A DNA stretch of 64,000 bases from Candidatus Melainabacteria bacterium 17Bon1m. GTDB lineage: Bacteria; Cyanobacteriota; Vampirovibrionia; Obscuribacterales; Obscuribacteraceae. The first letter of the stretch is position 1. Each line of letters opens with the position of its first letter. The translations under genes were made by a program, and so were the position numbers. The notes under the pieces are model-generated. The model did no database searches and had not been told where the DNA came from. It was given only the letters and a program-made list of their open reading frames with translations. The stretch is taken from the NCBI GenBank assembly GCA_032128875.1, contig JAVLKG010000011.1, positions 32,001-96,000 on the forward strand, given 5' to 3'. Shown piece by piece: positions 4,694-18,240 of the stretch.

Positions 4694-6499
4694 GTGACAG
4701 CCGACCCTAATCTCATCCGCAACTTTTCCATCATCGCCCACATCGACCATGGCAAATCGACGCTGGCCGATCGTTTGTTGGAATACACCAAGACTATCGC
4801 CAAGCGCGACATGCAGGCTCAAATCCTCGACACCATGGATATCGAGCGCGAGCGCGGCATCACCATCAAAGCGCAGCCGGCGCGAATGGAATACACGGCG
4901 CAGGATGGCAAGCAATATATTTTGAATCTGATCGACACGCCTGGGCACGTCGACTTCGGTTATGAAGTCTCACGCAGTCTTGCTGCATGCGAAGGCGCGT
5001 TGCTAGTAGTTGATTCTAGTCAGGGCGTTGAAGCGCAAACTTTGGCAAACGTCCACCTTGCGGTGGAGAACAATTTGGAAATCGTGCCAATTATCAACAA
5101 GATCGACTTGCCTAGTGCCGATCCTGAGCGCATCCGCGCTGAGATTGAAGAAGTTATCGGGCTTGATGCCAGCCATGCTGTTTTGGCTTCGGCAAAGAAT
5201 CATATCGGTATTGAAGAAACCCTCGAAGCGATCGTGAATTTCATAGGACCCCCGCAAAATACAGTCGACAAGCCGCTTCGCGCGCTTGTATTTGACAGCT
5301 ATTTTGAAAGCTATCGCGGCATCATCGTTTATTTCCGCGTTAAAGATGGCGAAATCAAAATGGGCGACAAGATTCGCTTCATGAATAACAAGTCCGATTT
5401 CGAGGTCACGGAGTTGGGCGTTCTGCGTCCACAGCAGTACAAGGTCGACAGATTAGGACCCGGTGAAGTAGGTTATCTCGCCGCGTCTATCAAAGACGTA
5501 GCGACGCTCGTCGGCGATACGATTACACTCCAGGACAGACCTGCACCCGAGCCATTGCCGGGTTATCGCCCCGCAAAGCCGATGGTTTTCGCCGGACTCT
5601 ATCCAGTCGACAACGAGCAGTATCCGGATCTCCGCGAAGCGCTCGAAAAGCTGATTCTCAATGACTCTTCCTTGCAGTACGAACCAGAAACTTCCGAGGC
5701 GCTCGGTTTCGGATTTCGTTGTGGATTCCTTGGTTTGCTGCACATGGAAATCATTCAGGAGCGTCTTGAGCGCGAGTACGACTTGCGACTGATTACGACG
5801 GCTCCCTCAGTTGTATATCGCGTGACGAAGACAGATGGCAGTGTTCTTATGATTGAGAACCCTGCATTTTTGCCCGATCCAAACTATCGTACGATGATTG
5901 AAGAGCCATACGTGTCTGCTTCAATCATGGTGCCGAATGACTTCGTCGGGCAGATTATGGAACTCTGCCAGGGGCGCCGCGGTATCTTCCAAGATATGAA
6001 GTACTTGGATCCGCGTCGTGCGATGCTGCATTACGAGCTGCCTTTGGCAGAAATCATCACTGATTTCTTCGACCAATTGAAGTCGCGTTCTCGCGGTTAT
6101 GCAAGTCTCGATTATCACTTTCATGAGTACCGTGAATCCAATCTCGTGAAGCTGGATATTCTCATCAGCGGCGAACCTTGTGATGCCCTCTCTGCGATTG
6201 TTCACCGTGAGCGCGCTGCAAGTTATGGTCGTTTGCTTGCAGAGAAATTGAAAAAGCTTATCCCCAGACAGATGTTTGAAGTTCCGATTCAAGCGGCAAT
6301 CGGCGGCAAGATTATTGCGCGTGAAACAGTTTCAGCCCAGCGCAAAGACGTTTTGTCGAAGTGCTACGGTGGTGACATCTCCCGTAAGCGCAAACTCTTG
6401 GAAAAACAAAAAGAAGGTAAGAAGCGGATGAAGTCCGTTGGACGCGTCGAGATTCCGCAGGAAGCATTTATGGCTGTGCTCAAGCTTGAGGAAGACTAA
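4694..6499 (+). CDS. lepA: Elongation factor 4 (LepA)
   Basis: [53 protein letters not shown]. Confidence 0.99.
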
Positions 6500-7533
6500 T
6501 GCCCAAGGGCAAATCCGGTAAATCGGGCGACGATAAGCCAAAGAAGTCGGCGGCGAAAAAATCGGAACCTAAACCATCTGAGCAAGAACATTTGCAAGCG
6601 CAGAAGTTTATTGATGCTGGCGGCGGTGAGCCGGAAGTTTTTGATGAGGAAATCCAACTCGAGGATTCTCGCGTTTTCAAAATGCTGCAGGGACTACAGC
6701 TCTCTCCAGAGGAAGCACGTGAAGCAGCTGTCAGGCAGCGTAACTTGCTTATTGAATCCTGGAACACTCGCGATGAGCTTTACCGCGAATTATTCGGCGA
6801 GCCTAGATACGTAACTCCTGGTCCCTATGCACCGCCACCGGTGCTAAAGGCTGAGGATGTTATTTTGCCTGAGGATCAAGTAGAGCGCGGCGAAACTGGT
6901 GATCCTGGAAATCCTAATCTCGACGAGCAGCACCTCAATATCCTCGTCTACGCACCGGATCCGACACGCCCTTACTGGACCTATGTCACCGCTGGATTGA
7001 GCAGTCCCTGGCTGCAAGATGCACCTGCGGAAGTTACTGGCTTTGGCTGCGAGATCATGATTAAGACAAAGGAAGATATGCCATGGGCTGCGCAAATTCT
7101 TCGCACCCTGGCGTTCTACATTCTCAATCATGCCGGCACCCTATCGCCTGGTGTTCGAATAGATTTGAACGGACCGATCATTCCGGGCTCCAACTCGAAG
7201 CTCAGTAACATCTTTATTTGGTATCCAGACGATGCACCTGATTGTTGGTATTACCTACCTTCTGGTGGCTTCGGTTTGTTCATAGCTATCGGCATCACGC
7301 CAGACGAAAGACAATTCGCAGAGTCCATTGAAGAATATGGCACTTGGTGCATCCAACAAGTACTTCGCCAGATGGGACACGATCAAGTCACCGATCCTTA
7401 TCGCGGCACGGTTATGGATCAAGAAGGAATTGGCCTTGCTTTGTTGAAGACAAAATCCTTCGCAGATAACTTCCGTGCGAATGTTGCATACGGTAGTGAA
7501 CCCTCATATGGCAATGAGTCTTTTGAGTCGTAA
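6499..7533 (+). CDS. Suppressor-of-fused (SUFU)-domain protein
   Basis: WTYVTAGLS...GFGCE...WAAQIL...GITPDE pattern typical of bacterial SUFU domains; TAATG overlap with lepA. Confidence 0.7.
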   Translation: MPKGKSGKSGDDKPKKSAAKKSEPKPSEQEHLQAQKFIDAGGGEPEVFDEEIQLEDSRVFKMLQGLQLSPEEAREAAVRQRNLLIESWNTRDELYRELFGEPRYVTPGPYAPPPVLKAEDVILPEDQVERGETGDPGNPNLDEQHLNILVYAPDPTRPYWTYVTAGLSSPWLQDAPAEVTGFGCEIMIKTKEDMPWAAQILRTLAFYILNHAGTLSPGVRIDLNGPIIPGSNSKLSNIFIWYPDDAPDCWYYLPSGGFGLFIAIGITPDERQFAESIEEYGTWCIQQVLRQMGHDQVTDPYRGTVMDQEGIGLALLKTKSFADNFRANVAYGSEPSYGNESFES

Positions 7534-7914: not shown

Positions 7915-8157
7915 CTAGCGGACGTTCTGCTCTTCATCTTTACGCTTTGCCCACTTACCCATAAGCTCACAGGCGACCGCAACCATGTCGGGGTCAAACT
8001 CTGAGATGTAATCTCGATAGTCGTCGAATTTTGGGTCGGACTTCAAAGTTTCAAAAATGTCGTGCTCCGATTGCCCACTTGCGAGCAGCTCGAGAAGTGC
8101 GTCTTGGAACTTTGCTAGCGTTTCCTCCTCGTTCGCTTTTATTTCTTTATCAGGCAT
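7915..8157 (-). CDS. Small protein coupled to DUF692, putative MNIO partner (80 aa)
   Basis: ATG overlaps the DUF692 stop (ATGCCTGA); N-terminal LAKFQDALLELL recalls DUF2063-type partner N-termini. Confidence 0.7.
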   Translation of the reverse strand: MPDKEIKANEEETLAKFQDALLELLASGQSEHDIFETLKSDPKFDDYRDYISEFDPDMVAVACELMGKWAKRKDEEQNVR

Positions 8158-9028
8158 AGCAGAACTCCAAAATTTCTTCCATCGTTTCGAAGTCTTCGCG
8201 GAATTCTTCTTGTGCTTCAGGTTCCATCATCGTGTAACCGAGTCTTTCCATAATCACAAATTCAATGTTGGGACACAGTTTCAGTGCAAGCGTTGCGAGA
8301 TTGAAAACCTCCTGAGGCACGGCATCATCGTGCGTATCACGGCGCACAGCAGCTCGTTTACCCGATATGGAATGGCTCCATGTGCCGCCGGAGAGATGAA
8401 TTTCGCGTACTTTAGCCAGCGGATATGAGTTCAAAAGTTCTAGCTCTGCGACGCCAAAATTTGCTAATTGGCAGTAAATATTGTGCAAGTCTAATAGCAA
8501 GAAACCATCTACCGCGGAAATCAATTGGTCGATAAAATCTCCCTGCCTTTTCACATCTTCGAGGCTGAATGCAAATGCTAGATTCTCCAGTCCCACCGGG
8601 CATTGCGTTGCATCAGCGTAGCGCTTCAGCATCTCCTTGCCTTTGCGCAAGGACTCGGCATTCATTGGTACCGCAAGTGGTGCACCCTGCGCAATTGGTC
8701 CTGCTTCTGAAAAACCAAAATGCTCTGATGCATGAACATATTTTCGAGCCTTGAATTCTTCTCTTGCGTTATCGAGCCATTTCTCTTGGCGTTGTGAAAA
8801 CCGTGCAGAAAGTGGCGATAGATTGACACCGTGCCCTGTCAAAGCCTTCTTCGCGCTGAATTCGTCGAGTATTTTGATACACCATTCGCTGACTTGTGCA
8901 CCATTCCATGAAAAGTCAAAACTCCACTCGATTGCTTTTACTTGCCCGTTTTGAAACAGCGGAACCGTCGCCTGCTCGAAGTCTTCCGTCGGCATCAACG
9001 ATAGTCCAAGTTTAGGTTTGTATTGCAT
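8150..9028 (-). CDS. DUF692 family multinuclear non-heme iron oxidative enzyme (MNIO; MbnB/TglH/ChrH family)
   Basis: Metal-ligand motifs HGVNLS, SEHFGF, GLENL, LLLDLHN, EIHLSGG, DTHD, IMER in a ~290 aa TIM-barrel-sized ORF. Confidence 0.93.
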   Translation of the reverse strand: MQYKPKLGLSLMPTEDFEQATVPLFQNGQVKAIEWSFDFSWNGAQVSEWCIKILDEFSAKKALTGHGVNLSPLSARFSQRQEKWLDNAREEFKARKYVHASEHFGFSEAGPIAQGAPLAVPMNAESLRKGKEMLKRYADATQCPVGLENLAFAFSLEDVKRQGDFIDQLISAVDGFLLLDLHNIYCQLANFGVAELELLNSYPLAKVREIHLSGGTWSHSISGKRAAVRRDTHDDAVPQEVFNLATLALKLCPNIEFVIMERLGYTMMEPEAQEEFREDFETMEEILEFCYA

Positions 9029-9058
9029 CCGTCCACCTGGTCTCGTTCTGCGAAATAC

Positions 9059-10078
9059 CTAACCCATACCGCAATCTACGGCATACATATCTTGCTGTAA
9101 AGTCCACCATCTCAGGTGACCGCAAGCACCGTCAACTGGATAGAGTATTTTTTCATCTCTAATCCCAACCAAGTTATACAGGACATTTTTTTCGCTATCA
9201 GCGAGTGACTTCTTCCCAAGTTGCTCGTACCAGAGTGCCATATCTCGGTGCATCTTTCGCCTAAGATGTTGATCTGGTCCTAGGCGATCTGCAAGTGTGA
9301 TTGCTCTTAACCGGAGCTTTTCGCTTTTGTTGAAGTCGCTTTTAGTAAATGGATTAACATGTATTTTTCGCTCGCCGATTGCGCTTTTCGGCTCCCTATC
9401 CGTAATGCTGATCGGAATAATGTCCATTGCAAGCAAGTTCAATGCGGTGCATGCAGATTCAATTTCTTGTATGTCGATTTGCGTCTTTGCCTCACAAGTT
9501 TTAACTGCATCATCAATGCGAGTTTTGCATTCCGAAATTCCAGTAGTGTTTTCAGTTTTCTCGTAAATTCGCATGGCGATAAAGCATATTATCAACTTCG
9601 AGTACTTGTCTGTCATCGCATCTAGTTGCGACACTGCTAGATCGATTGCGGAATTTGCCAAAGCTCTATTTTGCTTCTTCTCTTCAGTGTTCGTTTTATG
9701 CGGCTCTGGCTTATTGTCTTTGAAAACAAAGAAAAATTTTCCTGTAAAAACATCTTGCGCCCAGCCATCAAGGGTGTTTCTGAATCTTCTGGGAATTTGG
9801 AAGGCTTTCGTTTGGTTCGCTAGTTCAGAAAATCTCGCTTCAAGATCTTTCTTATCGCATCCAGCCAAATAGTCTCTTGCAAGTGTCAGTAGAAAGAATG
9901 CTCTTATTTCAGGAGACAGATGTGAATTGTTGGCGATTTTTTGTCCGATGAGAGAATGTGACTCTGATTTGTTCTCGTTCGCTGCACTGACAGGTAGGAG
10001 TGCATTAAGTAGGCTGCTTGCAAAGACAATTGCTAGTAACGCCTTTTTCTGCCGTTCGTTTTTGCTGGGTGTTTTCAA
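9059..10078 (-). CDS. Secreted helical protein with C-terminal CGHxxWW...CGMG core, putative MNIO substrate (paralog 5)
   Basis: Signal-peptide-like N-terminus; ends YPVDGACGHLRWWTLQQDMYAVDCGMG; paralogous to the next four ORFs. Confidence 0.8.
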   Translation of the reverse strand: MKTPSKNERQKKALLAIVFASSLLNALLPVSAANENKSESHSLIGQKIANNSHLSPEIRAFFLLTLARDYLAGCDKKDLEARFSELANQTKAFQIPRRFRNTLDGWAQDVFTGKFFFVFKDNKPEPHKTNTEEKKQNRALANSAIDLAVSQLDAMTDKYSKLIICFIAMRIYEKTENTTGISECKTRIDDAVKTCEAKTQIDIQEIESACTALNLLAMDIIPISITDREPKSAIGERKIHVNPFTKSDFNKSEKLRLRAITLADRLGPDQHLRRKMHRDMALWYEQLGKKSLADSEKNVLYNLVGIRDEKILYPVDGACGHLRWWTLQQDMYAVDCGMG

Positions 10079-10155
10079 AGTCTAAAACCTAATCACACTT
10101 TGTCCGTTTGATTTTGGAGTCGCAGCGAAGCAGAGATACTTCCCTTCATTCTATG

Positions 10156-11190
10156 CTAACCCATGCCGCAGCCACCCCGAATCCGGAGTTCCTTGGTTTC
10201 CCACCACACAATATGTCCGCATCCTGCTTGCCGAGGATATAAAAGGCTGTCGCTTTTGTCACCAACCAGTTGAAAAAGTAGTTGTTTCTGCTGCTCAGAC
10301 TTTTCCTTTTTGCCAAGTTCTCTGTACCAGAGTGTCAAATTCCTGTGCGCCATCCTTCGTGCATGATCAATCGCGGGCAACTTATCGAGAATTGCTGCTG
10401 CCCTTAATCTTAGGCTTTCGCTCTCAAGAAAATTTCTTTCGGAGTATGATTCTAATGGCTTGGTTTTACCTCCCCATGGATAACTAGGGTCGGCTATGCG
10501 AAGCGAAATAGACTCGTTTGACATCAAGTTAAGCACCGAGGCTGTTGCTTTCCTTTCCTCTGTGGATGCAGAAGGGTTCTTTTCGCAATCGCTAATTGCG
10601 GTGTTCAACAGTATTTCGCATTTACGCGCTTCGATTGTGTCTCCAAGCTTGGTAAATACTCTCAACGCAATGAAGTGAAGATTCAACTTCGTGAATGATT
10701 TGGAAGCTTTCTCTAGTTGCCTGACAGCAGATTTTGCGGATTTGTCGGCTAATCTCATATTTTCAGCTGACGTTGTCCACACTTTCTTGTTTGACTTTGT
10801 GACTGAATTGGGCGGATACGATGTTCCATTTTCATCAGAATCAATTTGATCTGCCCACGAGACAAATATTCCTTCTCTTTTTTCGACGTTTTCCAGAAAA
10901 GAAAGATTGTCTCTGAGGTTTGCATATCTCGCATTGATTGACTGGGTCTCTGTTCCGATCAAAAAGTCCGTAGCGACTCTCAGCAGATAATAGGCTCTAA
11001 CCTCCGGAGAAAGATCTTGGTTTGTTGACAGTTGTGCAATAACGGAATCTTGTGCTGCAGTAATGTTAGTCGAGTTGGAATTATTGTCCGCAGAAAGAGA
11101 AATTTGCGGAAAGAGAATTCCGCTTGCGAAAGCAATTGCAATCAACGATCTTGTTCTATTATTTTTTTCGTCGGGCTTTATTTTTCTCAT
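10156..11190 (-). CDS. Secreted helical protein with C-terminal CGHxxWW...CGMG core, putative MNIO substrate (paralog 4)
   Basis: Signal-peptide-like N-terminus; ends YPRQAGCGHIVWWETKELRIRGGCGMG. Confidence 0.8.
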   Translation of the reverse strand: MRKIKPDEKNNRTRSLIAIAFASGILFPQISLSADNNSNSTNITAAQDSVIAQLSTNQDLSPEVRAYYLLRVATDFLIGTETQSINARYANLRDNLSFLENVEKREGIFVSWADQIDSDENGTSYPPNSVTKSNKKVWTTSAENMRLADKSAKSAVRQLEKASKSFTKLNLHFIALRVFTKLGDTIEARKCEILLNTAISDCEKNPSASTEERKATASVLNLMSNESISLRIADPSYPWGGKTKPLESYSERNFLESESLRLRAAAILDKLPAIDHARRMAHRNLTLWYRELGKKEKSEQQKQLLFQLVGDKSDSLLYPRQAGCGHIVWWETKELRIRGGCGMG

Positions 11191-11247
11191 TGGTTCTTGA
11201 TTCTCTCAGCCGCGGATTTTAGGCGTATATCTTTGTCCCAATTCGGT

Positions 11248-12285
11248 TTAACCCATGCCACAGCCAATAAGCGCGCCTTTGTAGGATTTGCCTGTTTGCC
11301 ACCAACTAACATGCCCACAACCACCGGGTTTAGCATACAGAATATCTTCGTCTTCAGTGCCAACAAGTTGGAACAAAATTTGTTTTTGCACTTTTGCCAA
11401 TTCTGGTTTGTTCAAGGCTAAATACCAAAGAACCAGGTCTCTATGCGTTTTCCTGCGTTCATGACTGCTCGGCGATAGCCGATCGATTATTGCTGCAGCT
11501 CTTAGCTTGAGACTTTCACTTTCTCTAAAATCGGCCTCGCTGAATGGCTTAACTCTCGGTACTCGCGCCCCGGGAGTAGTCTCAGGAGAGAAATCCGGTA
11601 TTCTGACAGGAATTTTTCTGTTTGCCATCACGTTCAAAATCGTTGAGACTGCCACTGCCTCTCCTCCGATGACGGACGGATTTTTTTCACATGACAGGAT
11701 CGAGTTGTCTAGGTATTTCTTGCATCGCTGAACGCCGCTCTCATTACCGGTTCTTTTAAAGAGATTTTCTGCGATTAAATACATGTCTAAAATCATTGTT
11801 TTGTTTGAGACTTTTTCTAGTTGCTTCAGAGCCGCCAGAACTGCTGAATCTGCAGCTTTAATTATGGACGGCGAGCTTGTCTGGCGCGCAGATTTGCCTG
11901 CTGTGTAACTCATCCCGTGCTTGTTACCCTCGGTATTTTCGACGACTTGAAGTACCCAATCATCCAGAACTTTGCCTCTCTTGAATAGCAAGTTTCCGTG
12001 CATTGGCTGGATACTTCTGAAGCTGTCATCTACGATCTTTTGATCGTTGTTTGCAAGATATGCTTCAGCCAGGCGAAGCAAATAGTATGCACGAACCTCT
12101 GCGGGCATTTCTGTGCGTTTCGCAATCATTTGTATCGCTGATTCATTCAATTGCGCCGGTTCCGGTGTTTTTTGCAATTTGACAGGTGCATTCCCCTCTG
12201 CAGGAAGTTGGTGCTGAAGAATTCCAGCTGCGAACATGATTGCGAGAAGCGTTTCTCGTTTAGAAGCTCTTCTATTTCTTTGCAT
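11248..12285 (-). CDS. Secreted helical protein with C-terminal CGHxxWW...CGMG core, putative MNIO substrate (paralog 3)
   Basis: Signal-peptide-like N-terminus; ends YAKPGGCGHVSWWQTGKSYKGALIGCGMG. Confidence 0.8.
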   Translation of the reverse strand: MQRNRRASKRETLLAIMFAAGILQHQLPAEGNAPVKLQKTPEPAQLNESAIQMIAKRTEMPAEVRAYYLLRLAEAYLANNDQKIVDDSFRSIQPMHGNLLFKRGKVLDDWVLQVVENTEGNKHGMSYTAGKSARQTSSPSIIKAADSAVLAALKQLEKVSNKTMILDMYLIAENLFKRTGNESGVQRCKKYLDNSILSCEKNPSVIGGEAVAVSTILNVMANRKIPVRIPDFSPETTPGARVPRVKPFSEADFRESESLKLRAAAIIDRLSPSSHERRKTHRDLVLWYLALNKPELAKVQKQILFQLVGTEDEDILYAKPGGCGHVSWWQTGKSYKGALIGCGMG

Positions 12286-12498
12286 GCAATTAAGTCTCCA
12301 TCGGTACTTCCCGGAAGTGTTTTTACTCTCGCAAAATGCGAGGAGTAAGACATAGGAAACGACAGAAGTTGCTTAGTAACTTTCTTACGGTCAGCCGGCA
12401 GCTTTGCTCTCCGGACGATTTTACGATATTAAAAACCCTACCAGCATTTTCCTACGGCGAACACCGTGAAATTACTATATTTTTGGTAAGTCTTGGCG

Positions 12499-13449
12499 CT
12501 ACCCCATCCCGCACGCTGGGCAGGGCGGTGCTGGGGGAAACAGCGTGTTGCGGTCGGTTGTGTGCATCAGGTCGCTCAAAATCTTCGTAGCAAACTCTTC
12601 TTTCTTCGTATCGCCGTATAAGTGGTACCAAAAGACCATATTCCGATGCGCATCAATTCTTGTCGGATCGGCAGGCGGAAGGCGGTCGTAGGCATTTAGC
12701 GCTCGCAAATGATAGTCTTCTGCGAGTTTGAAATCCTTGTGTTTTATTGTGCCCGGCTTTGTTGGCGAATCGTCCGGGACTACCTGCATTGGTTGCATCA
12801 TACGTGCAGCGCGGAATGCCGGTGAAGGCGCGTACAACTGCGCCATACGGAGCAACATCATTGCTAGTGAAAGATACTCTTCGCGTTTTAAATTGATGTC
12901 AGACTCGAGAAGTTTTAGCTCGCGATCGTAAGCTGCTGTCGTCTCTCGTTCTTCCGCCTCCATTCCTGCCATTCGATAACCTTGAATGGCACGCAAACCA
13001 TAGTAAAGTCTTTCGAGTGATGCGGCTGGATACTTATTGGCATACGGTTGACCATCATGTAAAACCTGTTGGGCTTTTGCTTTCAACTCGCGGCGCAAGC
13101 TGTCTGAGTACGATTTTTCAGCGCTTGCAGTGAGCAAAGCTAGTGCGTAGGTGCTAAACATATTCGGCAACGGATTGTTCTTAGGATTGGCGGTTGCCTT
13201 TTGAGCCACGACTGCTTTGTTAAACGTCTCATCGGCTTCTTTTATCATGCCGTTTCTTGCGTACATGCTGCAAAGATTGGCTAGGCGGATAGGGTATTGC
13301 GCATTGTCTTTTCCCTGCTGCGCGATAAATTCCTCGAACTGTTTTTCGGCAATTTTGACTGCCGCTTTGTCTGCGCGCGCTGGTAAAGAACCAACCATAA
13401 TTCCCAAGGCGACTAATGAAGTGACTACCTTTGAAGATGTGTTTTTCAT
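12499..13449 (-). CDS. Secreted TPR-like protein ending in CPACGMG, putative MNIO substrate (paralog 2)
   Basis: Signal peptide ending PARA-D; ends LFPPAPPCPACGMG, the ChrA (chryseobasin) core motif. Confidence 0.85.
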   Translation of the reverse strand: MKNTSSKVVTSLVALGIMVGSLPARADKAAVKIAEKQFEEFIAQQGKDNAQYPIRLANLCSMYARNGMIKEADETFNKAVVAQKATANPKNNPLPNMFSTYALALLTASAEKSYSDSLRRELKAKAQQVLHDGQPYANKYPAASLERLYYGLRAIQGYRMAGMEAEERETTAAYDRELKLLESDINLKREEYLSLAMMLLRMAQLYAPSPAFRAARMMQPMQVVPDDSPTKPGTIKHKDFKLAEDYHLRALNAYDRLPPADPTRIDAHRNMVFWYHLYGDTKKEEFATKILSDLMHTTDRNTLFPPAPPCPACGMG

Positions 13450-13492
13450 TAGACCCTCGAAATATTCAATACACCAGTGTGCTCAAATGTAA

Positions 13493-14473
13493 TTATCCCC
13501 TGCCGCACCCATGGCAAGGATCTTTGGGAGGAAAGAGGACATTCTTATCGGTCGAGTGCAATAACTTACTCAAAATCTGCGTCTGGGCTTTTTCCTGGTC
13601 GGTTTGTTTGAAAAATGCATACCATTTTGCAAGGCGACGGTGTGCCGCTATTCTCCTCTGGTCGCTTTCAGGCAGTTTGTCGTAAAACGTTATTGCTCGT
13701 AGCTCGTATTTTTCTCCGGCTTTGAACTTCGATAGGCGTGTCGACGACGGGCTTAAGAATGGTTCGCTATCGTTAACTACTTCCTTGGTTGCCATTGCGG
13801 TGAAATCTGTATTGGATGGAGATTCACAAAGGAATTGCGACACAGCGATCAAGTTTTTTGCAACTCGTACCGCTTCTTCGTTTGACAATTTTGGAGTACT
13901 TCCAAGTGCGTCGACCAGCGCATCAAATGACCTCAAGACAATGTTCATTTCGCGCTGTTTTCCCAACGATTTATAGAATCCGATTGCGTTGACCATGAAA
14001 CTCAAGCGTTGCGCCGAATTAATCGGAAGTTTGCTTACCAATTTCAGTCCTTCTGCAACAACTTCTTCGGCGTTTTGTAAGTCGGCCCTGTACGCGCTTT
14101 CCAGCCCTGCGTAATTCTGTGATTCAGCGGGCGTCATAAATCTTGCAATCTGTGGTCGGTAGGTAAGACTTGTTGCCCAGTTCATCATTGTGCCCGGCAC
14201 ATCAAAGTTCTTTATCGTCGATCCGATTTCTATTGCCTTGCGATATGTCTCATTAGCCTCCTTTCTTTGACCGTTTGCTTTGTACGCGTTGGCGAGTTTC
14301 ATTAGTTGATAAACATACGAGGGGCTGGCCGTTTGTCCTCGTGATTCAAACGTTTTTACGCTTGCTTCCGCGGTTTGAAGAGCCGCAAGATTGTCTGCGC
14401 GTGCGTAATGACTTGAAAGACCCATGCTGCATAACAGCAATGAGCTGAAGACGAGGCGAGACTTATTTTTCAT
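13493..14473 (-). CDS. Secreted TPR-like protein ending in CHGCGRG, putative MNIO substrate (paralog 1)
   Basis: Likely start MKNKSRL after AAGGA (ORF track opens at 14620); signal peptide ending YARA-D; ends LFPPKDPCHGCGRG. Confidence 0.8.
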   Translation of the reverse strand: MKNKSRLVFSSLLLCSMGLSSHYARADNLAALQTAEASVKTFESRGQTASPSYVYQLMKLANAYKANGQRKEANETYRKAIEIGSTIKNFDVPGTMMNWATSLTYRPQIARFMTPAESQNYAGLESAYRADLQNAEEVVAEGLKLVSKLPINSAQRLSFMVNAIGFYKSLGKQREMNIVLRSFDALVDALGSTPKLSNEEAVRVAKNLIAVSQFLCESPSNTDFTAMATKEVVNDSEPFLSPSSTRLSKFKAGEKYELRAITFYDKLPESDQRRIAAHRRLAKWYAFFKQTDQEKAQTQILSKLLHSTDKNVLFPPKDPCHGCGRG

Positions 14474-14675
14474 TCGTATCCTTATTGAGTTCAAACTCAT
14501 TTGTGTTCTGACCATTTCGCCAGACTTGATTTTGCGCGAGTCAATCCGCAATCGATTGGCTCGACTTCGTCCTTTTGCCTGATTTAGCAGACTTTTGGCA
14601 TGATTGCTCCTCATGCCCATTTTTTACGCAGGCTAGAAAAATTGCACTGGGGTTAACCCAAAAGAAAATGTCGGA

Positions 14676-17900: not shown

Positions 17901-18240
17901 GTAAGGACGACGCCATGCGTCGACCGGTTTTATTGTGGGGGCGCGTTGCACGCGCCCTTTTTTTCTGTCTTCGTGGGGGCGCGTTGCACGCGCCCTTTTT
18001 TTTGTTTCGTGGGGGCGCGTTGCACGCGCCCTTTTTTTCTGTCTTTCGTGGGGGCGCGTTGCACGCGCCCTTTTTCTTGTTTCGTGGGGGCGCGTTGCAT
18101 GCGCCCTTTTTTTCTGTCTTTCGTGGGGGCGCGTTGCACGCGCCCTTTTTCTTGTTTCGTGGGGGCACGTTGAGCGCCCTCTGTCTTAAATCTGGGAGGG
18201 GCGAGCGCTCCAGCCGGTCGATGCATGGCATCTACCCTAC
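17901..18240. repeat. REP/BIME-like tandem hairpin array flanked by inverted REP-like elements
   Basis: Seven units of GTGGGGGCGCGTTGCACGCGCCC+T-rich linker start at 17935, 17973, 18009, 18048, 18084, 18123 and 18159 (last degenerate); flanks 17901-17927 and 18214-18240 are inverted copies (22/27 identical). Confidence 0.9.

Follow-up and report, generated by a model that had tools for sequence, protein, structure and literature searches.

The seven-gene cluster described here lies in a contig of Candidatus Melainabacteria bacterium 17Bon1m (JAVLKG010000011.1, positions 32,001 to 96,000; this stretch of 64,000 nucleotides is called the window below), where it occupies positions 7915-14473 on the minus strand. 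It was analyzed through a listing of open reading frames (ORFs) together with genome-wide ORF and pattern scans of the 7.55-Mb genome. The listing places seven co-oriented genes between 7915 and 14473, in the order of five genes for homologous proteins of 316-345 amino acids, a DUF692/MNIO gene (8150-9028) and a gene for an 80-amino-acid protein (7915-8157), the start of which overlaps the MNIO gene by 8 nucleotides. This confirms the arrangement given by the original prediction, namely five co-oriented paralogs upstream of a DUF692 gene with a coupled 80-amino-acid gene.

All five paralogs end in CG(M/R)G followed by a stop codon, and one of them ends in CPACGMG, just as had been claimed. Paralog 1 (13493-14473) has 326 amino acids when read from an MKNKSR start at 14473, within a longest ORF of 13493-14620 (375 amino acids); it carries a putative Sec-type signal and its C-terminus, LFPPKDPCHGCGRG, ends in CHGCGRG. 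Paralog 2 (12499-13449, 316 amino acids) has the C-terminus LFPPAPPCPACGMG, ending in the canonical CPACGMG. The C-x2-CGxG spacing is thus found in two of the five (type A cores), with the strict CPxCGxG form in one of the five. By contrast, the remaining three share the pattern C-G-H-x-x-W-W-x9-11-CGMG, in which the first Cys lies 16-18 residues before CGMG and a C-x2-C pair is absent (type B, or long-loop, cores). These are paralog 3 (11248-12285, 345 amino acids, C323-GHVSWW-...-C342-GMG, ending in LIGCGMG), paralog 4 (10156-11190, 344 amino acids, C324-GHIVWW-...-C341-GMG, ending in GGCGMG) and paralog 5 (9059-10078, 339 amino acids, C319-GHLRWW-...-C336-GMG, ending in VDCGMG). The loop of paralog 4 contains a Lys at which LysC would cleave (WWETK/ELRIRGGCGMG). 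The description of all five as having chryseobasin-like Cys cores therefore holds for two of them by spacing and fails for the other three, given the distance of their first Cys. The clustering of these ends goes beyond chance, because only 7 of the 18,504 M-starting ORFs of at least 60 amino acids in the genome end in CGxG, and five of the seven are the neighbouring cluster paralogs, while the CGMG-stop DNA pattern has four genome matches, all inside the cluster, against one match for a reversed control pattern. The other two CGxG-ending ORFs are a sixth homolog on another contig and an unrelated ORF of 176 amino acids.

The five paralogs align as a family (17-34% identity to the first) in which both Cys and the terminal G-x-G are invariant. 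By a crude check of charge and hydropathy, each N-terminus has a charge of +2 to +4 and then a hydrophobic stretch of 12 residues (Kyte-Doolittle mean 2.0-2.6) ahead of a small-x-small site, which fits the signal-peptide-like N-termini proposed for all five, and none of them shows a lipobox-like G, A or S in front of a Cys. Twin-arginine export was considered and rejected, and Sec export is preferred because the paralogs, compared by eye, do not share a conserved RR pair. Pfam returned only tetratricopeptide repeat (TPR) matches on the paralogs, all below threshold. The AlphaFold2 model of paralog 4 is an all-alpha solenoid with a flexible tail (mean pLDDT confidence score 83.3, predicted template modelling score 0.79), and a Foldseek search against the PDB gave no specific fold, only generic 14-3-3 and TPR solenoids with a best E of 0.022. 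The body of the paralogs is accordingly modelled as a TPR-like helical repeat without another domain, in agreement with the TPR description published for a homolog that is introduced below. The ChrA models NF050125 and NF050124 match paralog 2 only, over its last 10-21 residues and far below their thresholds (18 bits versus 40 and 14.4 bits versus 50), and by sequence the paralogs share the ChrA core while not being members of the ChrA precursor families.

A word-based homolog search with the five-paralog profile found only 8 proteins, and an exhaustive profile search was used instead. With a profile of 33 family members it returned 445 cluster representatives at E<=0.001, 182 of them at E<=1e-30; all five paralogs match a single family profile, paralog 1 at E 5.2e-91. 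The homologs carry the names Candidatus Obscuribacterales, Candidatus Obscuribacter, Melainabacteria or Cyanobacteria. A C-x(n)-CGxG end is present in 150 of 153 family sequences, the other three being truncated or degenerate. In the alignments the first Cys of type A is homologous to that of type B and the spacer between the two Cys differs, with 2 residues in type A (occasionally 3 or 5) and 15-20 residues in type B, opening with G-[HSQR]-[LV]-[VI]-W-W. The spacer is 2 in 20 of the 153 sequences and at least 14 in 122, all of which keep both Cys; these proportions are biased, because the query profile is richer in type B.

Further members of the family were seen outside the cluster. The sixth member of the same genome (contig C1, 267335-268222, minus strand; locus L151, 2339-3271) has 295 amino acids from the first Met, a signal-like N-terminus and the end CHGCGLG. 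It lies far from an MNIO gene, and similar orphan copies ending in CHGCGMG occur in L044 and L064. A 243-amino-acid open frame of the same genome (contig C2, 64067-64795; locus L150, 1067-1795) matches only the centre of the profile (152-307) and has no Cys core, so the helical body occurs untagged as well. Four shorter members stand in tandem on a 2757-nucleotide contig (L147; C169 of genome G001), three of them complete with about 200-240 amino acids and the fourth running off the contig end. The three complete ones show a third form of core, a C-x17-22-CG(M/R)G loop without Trp-Trp, and the contig ends before any enzyme gene is visible. Finally, a member beside an MNIO gene at L024 (261-1232; also G002, contig C96, 267-1247) lacks the Cys core and ends in GPRI, with one in-frame TGA in the genome-search match, and is probably a decaying copy.

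The MNIO protein (292 amino acids) has no signal peptide and matches PF05114 with E 4.3e-28 and 98.7 bits versus a cut-off of 25. Its best NCBIfam model is NF050165 (MNIO_ChrH; E 2.7e-99, 332.6 bits), which it covers over model positions 1-283 of 363, and other MNIO models score lower (BufB 85.6, HvfB 66.4 and ApyH 36 bits). A maximum-likelihood tree of 82 MNIO cores puts the window enzyme and that of locus L074, to which it is 78% identical, in the same clade of 24 rows with an SH-like approximate likelihood ratio test value of 100, and the Chryseobacterium enzymes form a separate clade. In an alignment of 30 homologs, H66, E148, D180, H182, H211, D231, H233 and E261 are invariant and H103 is nearly so. 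The iron ligands of DybH are H65, H102, D179, H210, D228 and H230 (10.64898/2026.10.27.762324), and the His and Asp residues of the window enzyme resemble them by near-equal numbering only, the DybH sequence being outside the alignment. On its model scores and tree position, the product of 8150-9028 is assigned to the ChrH/DybH/MelH subfamily, as the catalytic TIM-barrel part of a ChrH-family enzyme. The models favor a ChrH-type enzyme over the BufB, HvfB or ApyH types, and the clade includes the record of the characterized MelH at L074. The genome also holds a second MNIO gene (contig C6, 183274-184056, minus strand; locus L001), which is of the BufB (bufferin maturase) type at 313.8 bits versus a cut-off of 310, so that the organism has two different MNIO systems.

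The original prediction had treated the 80-amino-acid protein as a partner of the enzyme. In BLASTP it aligns to the C-terminal ends of relatives in which the enzyme is a single polypeptide, with 59% identity to P0048 (E 3e-25, residues 343-408 of 409) and 32% identity to P0101 (E 2e-11). Four fused relatives were scanned against the ChrH model; the alignment reaches positions 360-361 of 363 in three of them and position 349 in P0048. Because the small protein aligns to these C-termini, the next gene accounts for the 80 positions of the ChrH model that are missing from the MNIO protein. When the 80-amino-acid protein was itself compared with NF050165 by hmmscan, no match appeared at E up to 0.1. 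In 11 of 11 related loci the MNIO gene is followed by a separate ortholog, and the domain is split from the MNIO in all 23 loci in which the latter is at least 65% identical to that of the window. From these alignments we assign the 80-amino-acid protein as the detached C-terminal helical domain (Hc) of a ChrH-family enzyme, of the MelHc type, rather than a ChrI-like protein. A separate Hc was also seen in loci titled Planctomycetota, Verrucomicrobiota, Bdellovibrionota and Acidobacteriota (L090, L110, L120, L121, L127, L130, L134, L136, L141 and L142), which means that the split enzyme is not confined to Cyanobacteriota. Those loci carry core peptides of 67-136 amino acids, and L127 has in addition a core-bearing ORF of 275 amino acids.

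A cluster of this kind, mel, has been described from a Candidatus Melainabacteria genome (isolate SJ512) in PNAS in March 2026 (PMC13056109), following a preprint of November 2025 (PMC12636315). According to the main text of the former, MelA1 is a 34-kDa secreted TPR protein ending in CPACGMG that loses 4 Da through MelH only when MelHc, the separately encoded C-terminal helical domain of ChrH, is co-expressed. The same text states that ChrH-family enzymes have an extra C-terminal helical bundle which is encoded separately in Cyanobacteriota, and that in several of these clusters there are TPR proteins above 30 kDa with a CPACGMG end. Locus L074 bears the name of the published isolate, and the C-terminal LysC fragment of its type A ORF has a calculated [M+H]+ of 1388.62, the value printed for MelA1 in that main text (PMC13056109). 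Paralog 2 and the L074 type A protein share 42% identity over 317 aligned positions (E 8e-80), and by this comparison paralog 2 is the closest counterpart of MelA1 in the window; identity between paralog 4 and the L074 type B protein is 36%. Both clusters have TPR-like proteins of about 35 kDa that carry the core at the C-terminus and are secreted, in the window by prediction, together with an MNIO of the same clade, an Hc protein that is about 68% identical between them and the same logic of gene order. They differ in that all five substrate genes of the window lie upstream of the enzyme, whereas L074 has one type A gene upstream and one type B gene downstream, and the substrate tested in the main text of the mel paper is MelA1, a type A protein, only. 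The architecture, of which the original prediction knew no earlier description, was therefore already published for the mel cluster in the preprint and in PNAS.

More distant systems share part of this organization. The Chryseobacterium ChrH enzymes are 46-50% identical to the window MNIO, and in both ChrA and DybA a C-terminal C-x2-CGxG core is the site of the hydantoin and macrocycle. By contrast, ChrH and DybH are single polypeptides of 363-370 amino acids with Hc fused, the ChrA-type ORFs of Chryseobacterium encode peptides of 68-99 amino acids, and DybA is lipidated via a lipobox, which was not seen in the window paralogs. Bufferins (BufA/BufB/BufC) and oxazolins (HvfA/HvfB/HvfC) are likewise MNIO-modified Sec-exported products, but they depend on another MNIO subfamily, with thiooxazole or oxazolone-thioamide chemistry and a DUF2063 partner. 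A role of the products in copper binding finds no support in the window analysis or in the main texts of the mel and DybH papers. The background from which the prediction started, with ChrI as partner and S-adenosylmethionine, has since been superseded, given that ChrI is dispensable according to the main text of PMC13056109 and S-methylation by S-adenosylmethionine is spontaneous and non-enzymatic (10.64898/2026.10.27.762324).

We therefore read the cluster, with a probability of roughly 80%, as a mel-type system of the ChrH/DybH family in Obscuribacterales (Melainabacteria), resembling those that make ribosomal peptides which are modified after translation (RiPPs) and comprising five exported substrates and the two-piece enzyme MelH/MelHc. 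This keeps the central proposal of the original prediction, that one ChrH-like MNIO modifies the C-terminal Cys core of full-size exported TPR-like proteins, as has been shown for the orthologous MelA1 with MelH and MelHc, of which the window genes are close homologs. The genes would form a single operon encoding, besides the MelH barrel and the detached MelHc, five paralogous proteins of about 35-38 kDa that are TPR-like, helical and exported by Sec. In a course of events taken from the published homologs, a MelH-MelHc heterodimer in the cytoplasm would take the flexible C-terminal tail of a substrate into its multi-iron site, oxidize the Cys in the CG(M/R)G terminus to a thioaldehyde and rearrange the backbone to a hydantoin. 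The thiol of the upstream Cys would then close a thioaminal macrocycle with a net change of -4 Da, and the modified protein would be exported and lose its signal peptide to signal peptidase I. This order follows work in which the second Cys is oxidized first, to the thioaldehyde, and the first Cys closes the ring last (10.64898/2026.10.27.762324). For the type A paralogs ending in CPACGMG and CHGCGRG, the -4 Da rearrangement would be a direct extrapolation from MelA1. For the type B paralogs, we infer by analogy the same chemistry at CGMG, with the ring closed by the Cys 16-18 residues upstream and hence far larger.

The association of enzyme and substrate family was examined in 40 related genomes, of which 11 have both an MNIO ortholog and the family, 25 have neither, three have the family only and one has the MNIO only. 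The single MNIO-only case (G023) is a 3.3-kb contig that contains an ORF of 113 amino acids ending in CYGCGMG. These counts, which bear on the co-occurrence check suggested in the original prediction, speak for the interpretation. Substrate genes number one to six at the other loci examined, compared with five in the window plus the sixth member in its own genome.

Several points weigh against this interpretation. The three family-only relatives have matches without a detected MNIO ortholog, and yet none is a clean counterexample: the first (G001) is a 77% complete genome in which the matches fill a 2.7-kb contig, the match in the second (G004) runs off a contig end, and that in the third (G014) is a truncated ORF from which the core is missing. 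Because the related genomes are kin, the locus counts are not independent, and the loci of these genomes partly overlap with those named in the locus survey used below. In addition, the 332.6 bits of the window MNIO are under the equivalog cut-off of 600 of NF050165, so that by the NCBI rule it is not a ChrH equivalog but a member of the wider subfamily; the fused relatives of its clade likewise reach only 319-350 bits. The window cluster and all type B cores are known from sequence alone. The motif given in the main texts is CPxCGxG, and the ring enlargement tested there amounts to one residue, as opposed to the 16-18 residues considered here. Finally, the tail of the type B model (paralog 4) has low confidence, with a pLDDT of 50-68 from residue 320, and the proximity of the two Cys is for that reason unreadable from it.

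The most serious of the alternatives concerns the type B proteins. It holds that true substrates are limited to the two type A paralogs, and that the three type B proteins escape the enzyme or stop at the hydantoin or another reactive intermediate, with their upstream Cys serving otherwise, in a disulfide or in capture by another thiol or protein. The substrates tested in the main texts are all spaced C-x2-C or C-x3-C, glutathione traps the intermediate when the first Cys is unavailable (10.64898/2026.10.27.762324), an adduct of +303 Da being reported for DybA C44A, and the uncertain tail of the type B model also leaves room for such a fate. We reasoned from a survey in which named genomes were scanned with the MNIO alignment, giving 80 loci, 23 of which are close to the window by the 65% MNIO identity mentioned above. 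Type B cores are present in 21 of these 23 loci (17 with type B only and 4 with both types, leaving 2 with type A only) and in none of the other 57. The enzyme and Hc are thus kept beside type B alone in 17 of the 23 close loci, and in a 94% complete genome (G018) all 6 family members found are of type B, the sole further CGMG-stop match being a 5-codon chance ORF. These results argue that the type B proteins are substrates. Moreover, strong conservation of the upstream Cys and of the G-x-[LV]-[VI]-W-W motif argues for a selected role in an enzyme-dependent product. We consider it unlikely, on balance, that type A proteins are the only substrates. The other alternative, in which the enzyme really acts on a small precursor peptide encoded separately and the large proteins have an accessory part, for instance as scaffolds or binding proteins, draws on the core peptides of 60-136 amino acids encoded by most ChrH-family loci outside the window clade, and is very improbable here, as no other ORF of at least 60 amino acids in the genome ends in CGxG except the sixth member and the unrelated 176-amino-acid ORF, the CGMG-stop pattern, searched at any ORF length, matches the four cluster genes only (CGRG and CGLG ends below 60 amino acids lie outside the scan), and MelA1 itself is modified according to the main text of PMC13056109.

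With the type B proteins retained as candidate substrates, the conserved upstream Cys would fit the ring-closing role shown for DybA. In the main text of the preprint, a 7-residue tag on green fluorescent protein is enough for DybH, and one added ring residue (CPAACGMG) is tolerated (PMC12636315). We tentatively suggest, at somewhat less than even odds, that the type B tail C-G-[HSQR]-[LV]-[VI]-W-W-x9-12-C-G-M-G is the main natural substrate of the MelH clade, with its ring closed by the Cys 15-20 residues upstream. If so, a thioaminal-linked loop of about 18-23 residues enclosing the conserved Trp-Trp would form at the end of a 35-kDa secreted protein, a long-range macrocyclization far beyond the 4-5-residue rings shown so far, and the window would make both ring sizes with one enzyme. 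A complex prediction in which the MNIO, Hc and 3 Fe were combined with the C-terminal 100 residues of a type B paralog reached a median score of 0.13 against a mark of 0.32 and weighs neither way. The literature found on CPACGMG, MelHc, MelA1 and DybH consists of the mel and DybH papers and the original chryseobasin work. Long-loop cores are not mentioned in the main texts of PMC13056109 and PMC12636315, the supplements that list all proteins being outside this comparison; to judge by the name MelA1, the authors may have seen more than one precursor.

The surroundings of the cluster were considered as well. LepA, a SUFU-like gene, an epimerase, DegT and a glycosyltransferase were rejected as parts of the system, since they recur in just 3-7 of the 80 loci, all among those closest to the window, as was a flanking ORF of 108 amino acids, found in one of the 80. 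A protein of 344 amino acids with a SUFU domain (PF05076, 6.5e-20) is encoded at 6499-7533 on the plus strand, convergent with the cluster, and is syntenic in seven of the closest loci only. At 17935-18180 there is a tandem array with a period of 36 or 75 (6.6 or 3.3 copies), the unit of which consists of an inverted repeat rich in G+C (GGGGGCGCG...CGCGCCC) and then a T run, like stacked terminator hairpins; the long ORFs on both strands across this array look like repeat artefacts. A promoter and terminator scan gave counts no higher than in shuffled sequence. The whole stretch is present in three RNA-labelled runs, in the form of 13-kb parts of records that reach 137 kb, and the RNA-labelled sequence is identical to that of a DNA run of the same sample; because these are long records identical to the DNA run, they give no sign of transcription.

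The orthologous mel cluster has already established that full-size exported proteins can bear a RiPP core as a tag at the C-terminus, and the window adds no new principle in this respect. Its value lies in natural variation, as one of the larger substrate cassettes among the examined loci, in which the short canonical core occurs together with the long loop core with its Trp-Trp element under one split enzyme. The part worth experiment is the long-loop core on three of the five paralogs. Given that the long-loop form is commoner than the short one among the close loci examined, the cluster is convenient for asking how far the ring size can be stretched and what the modified proteins do.

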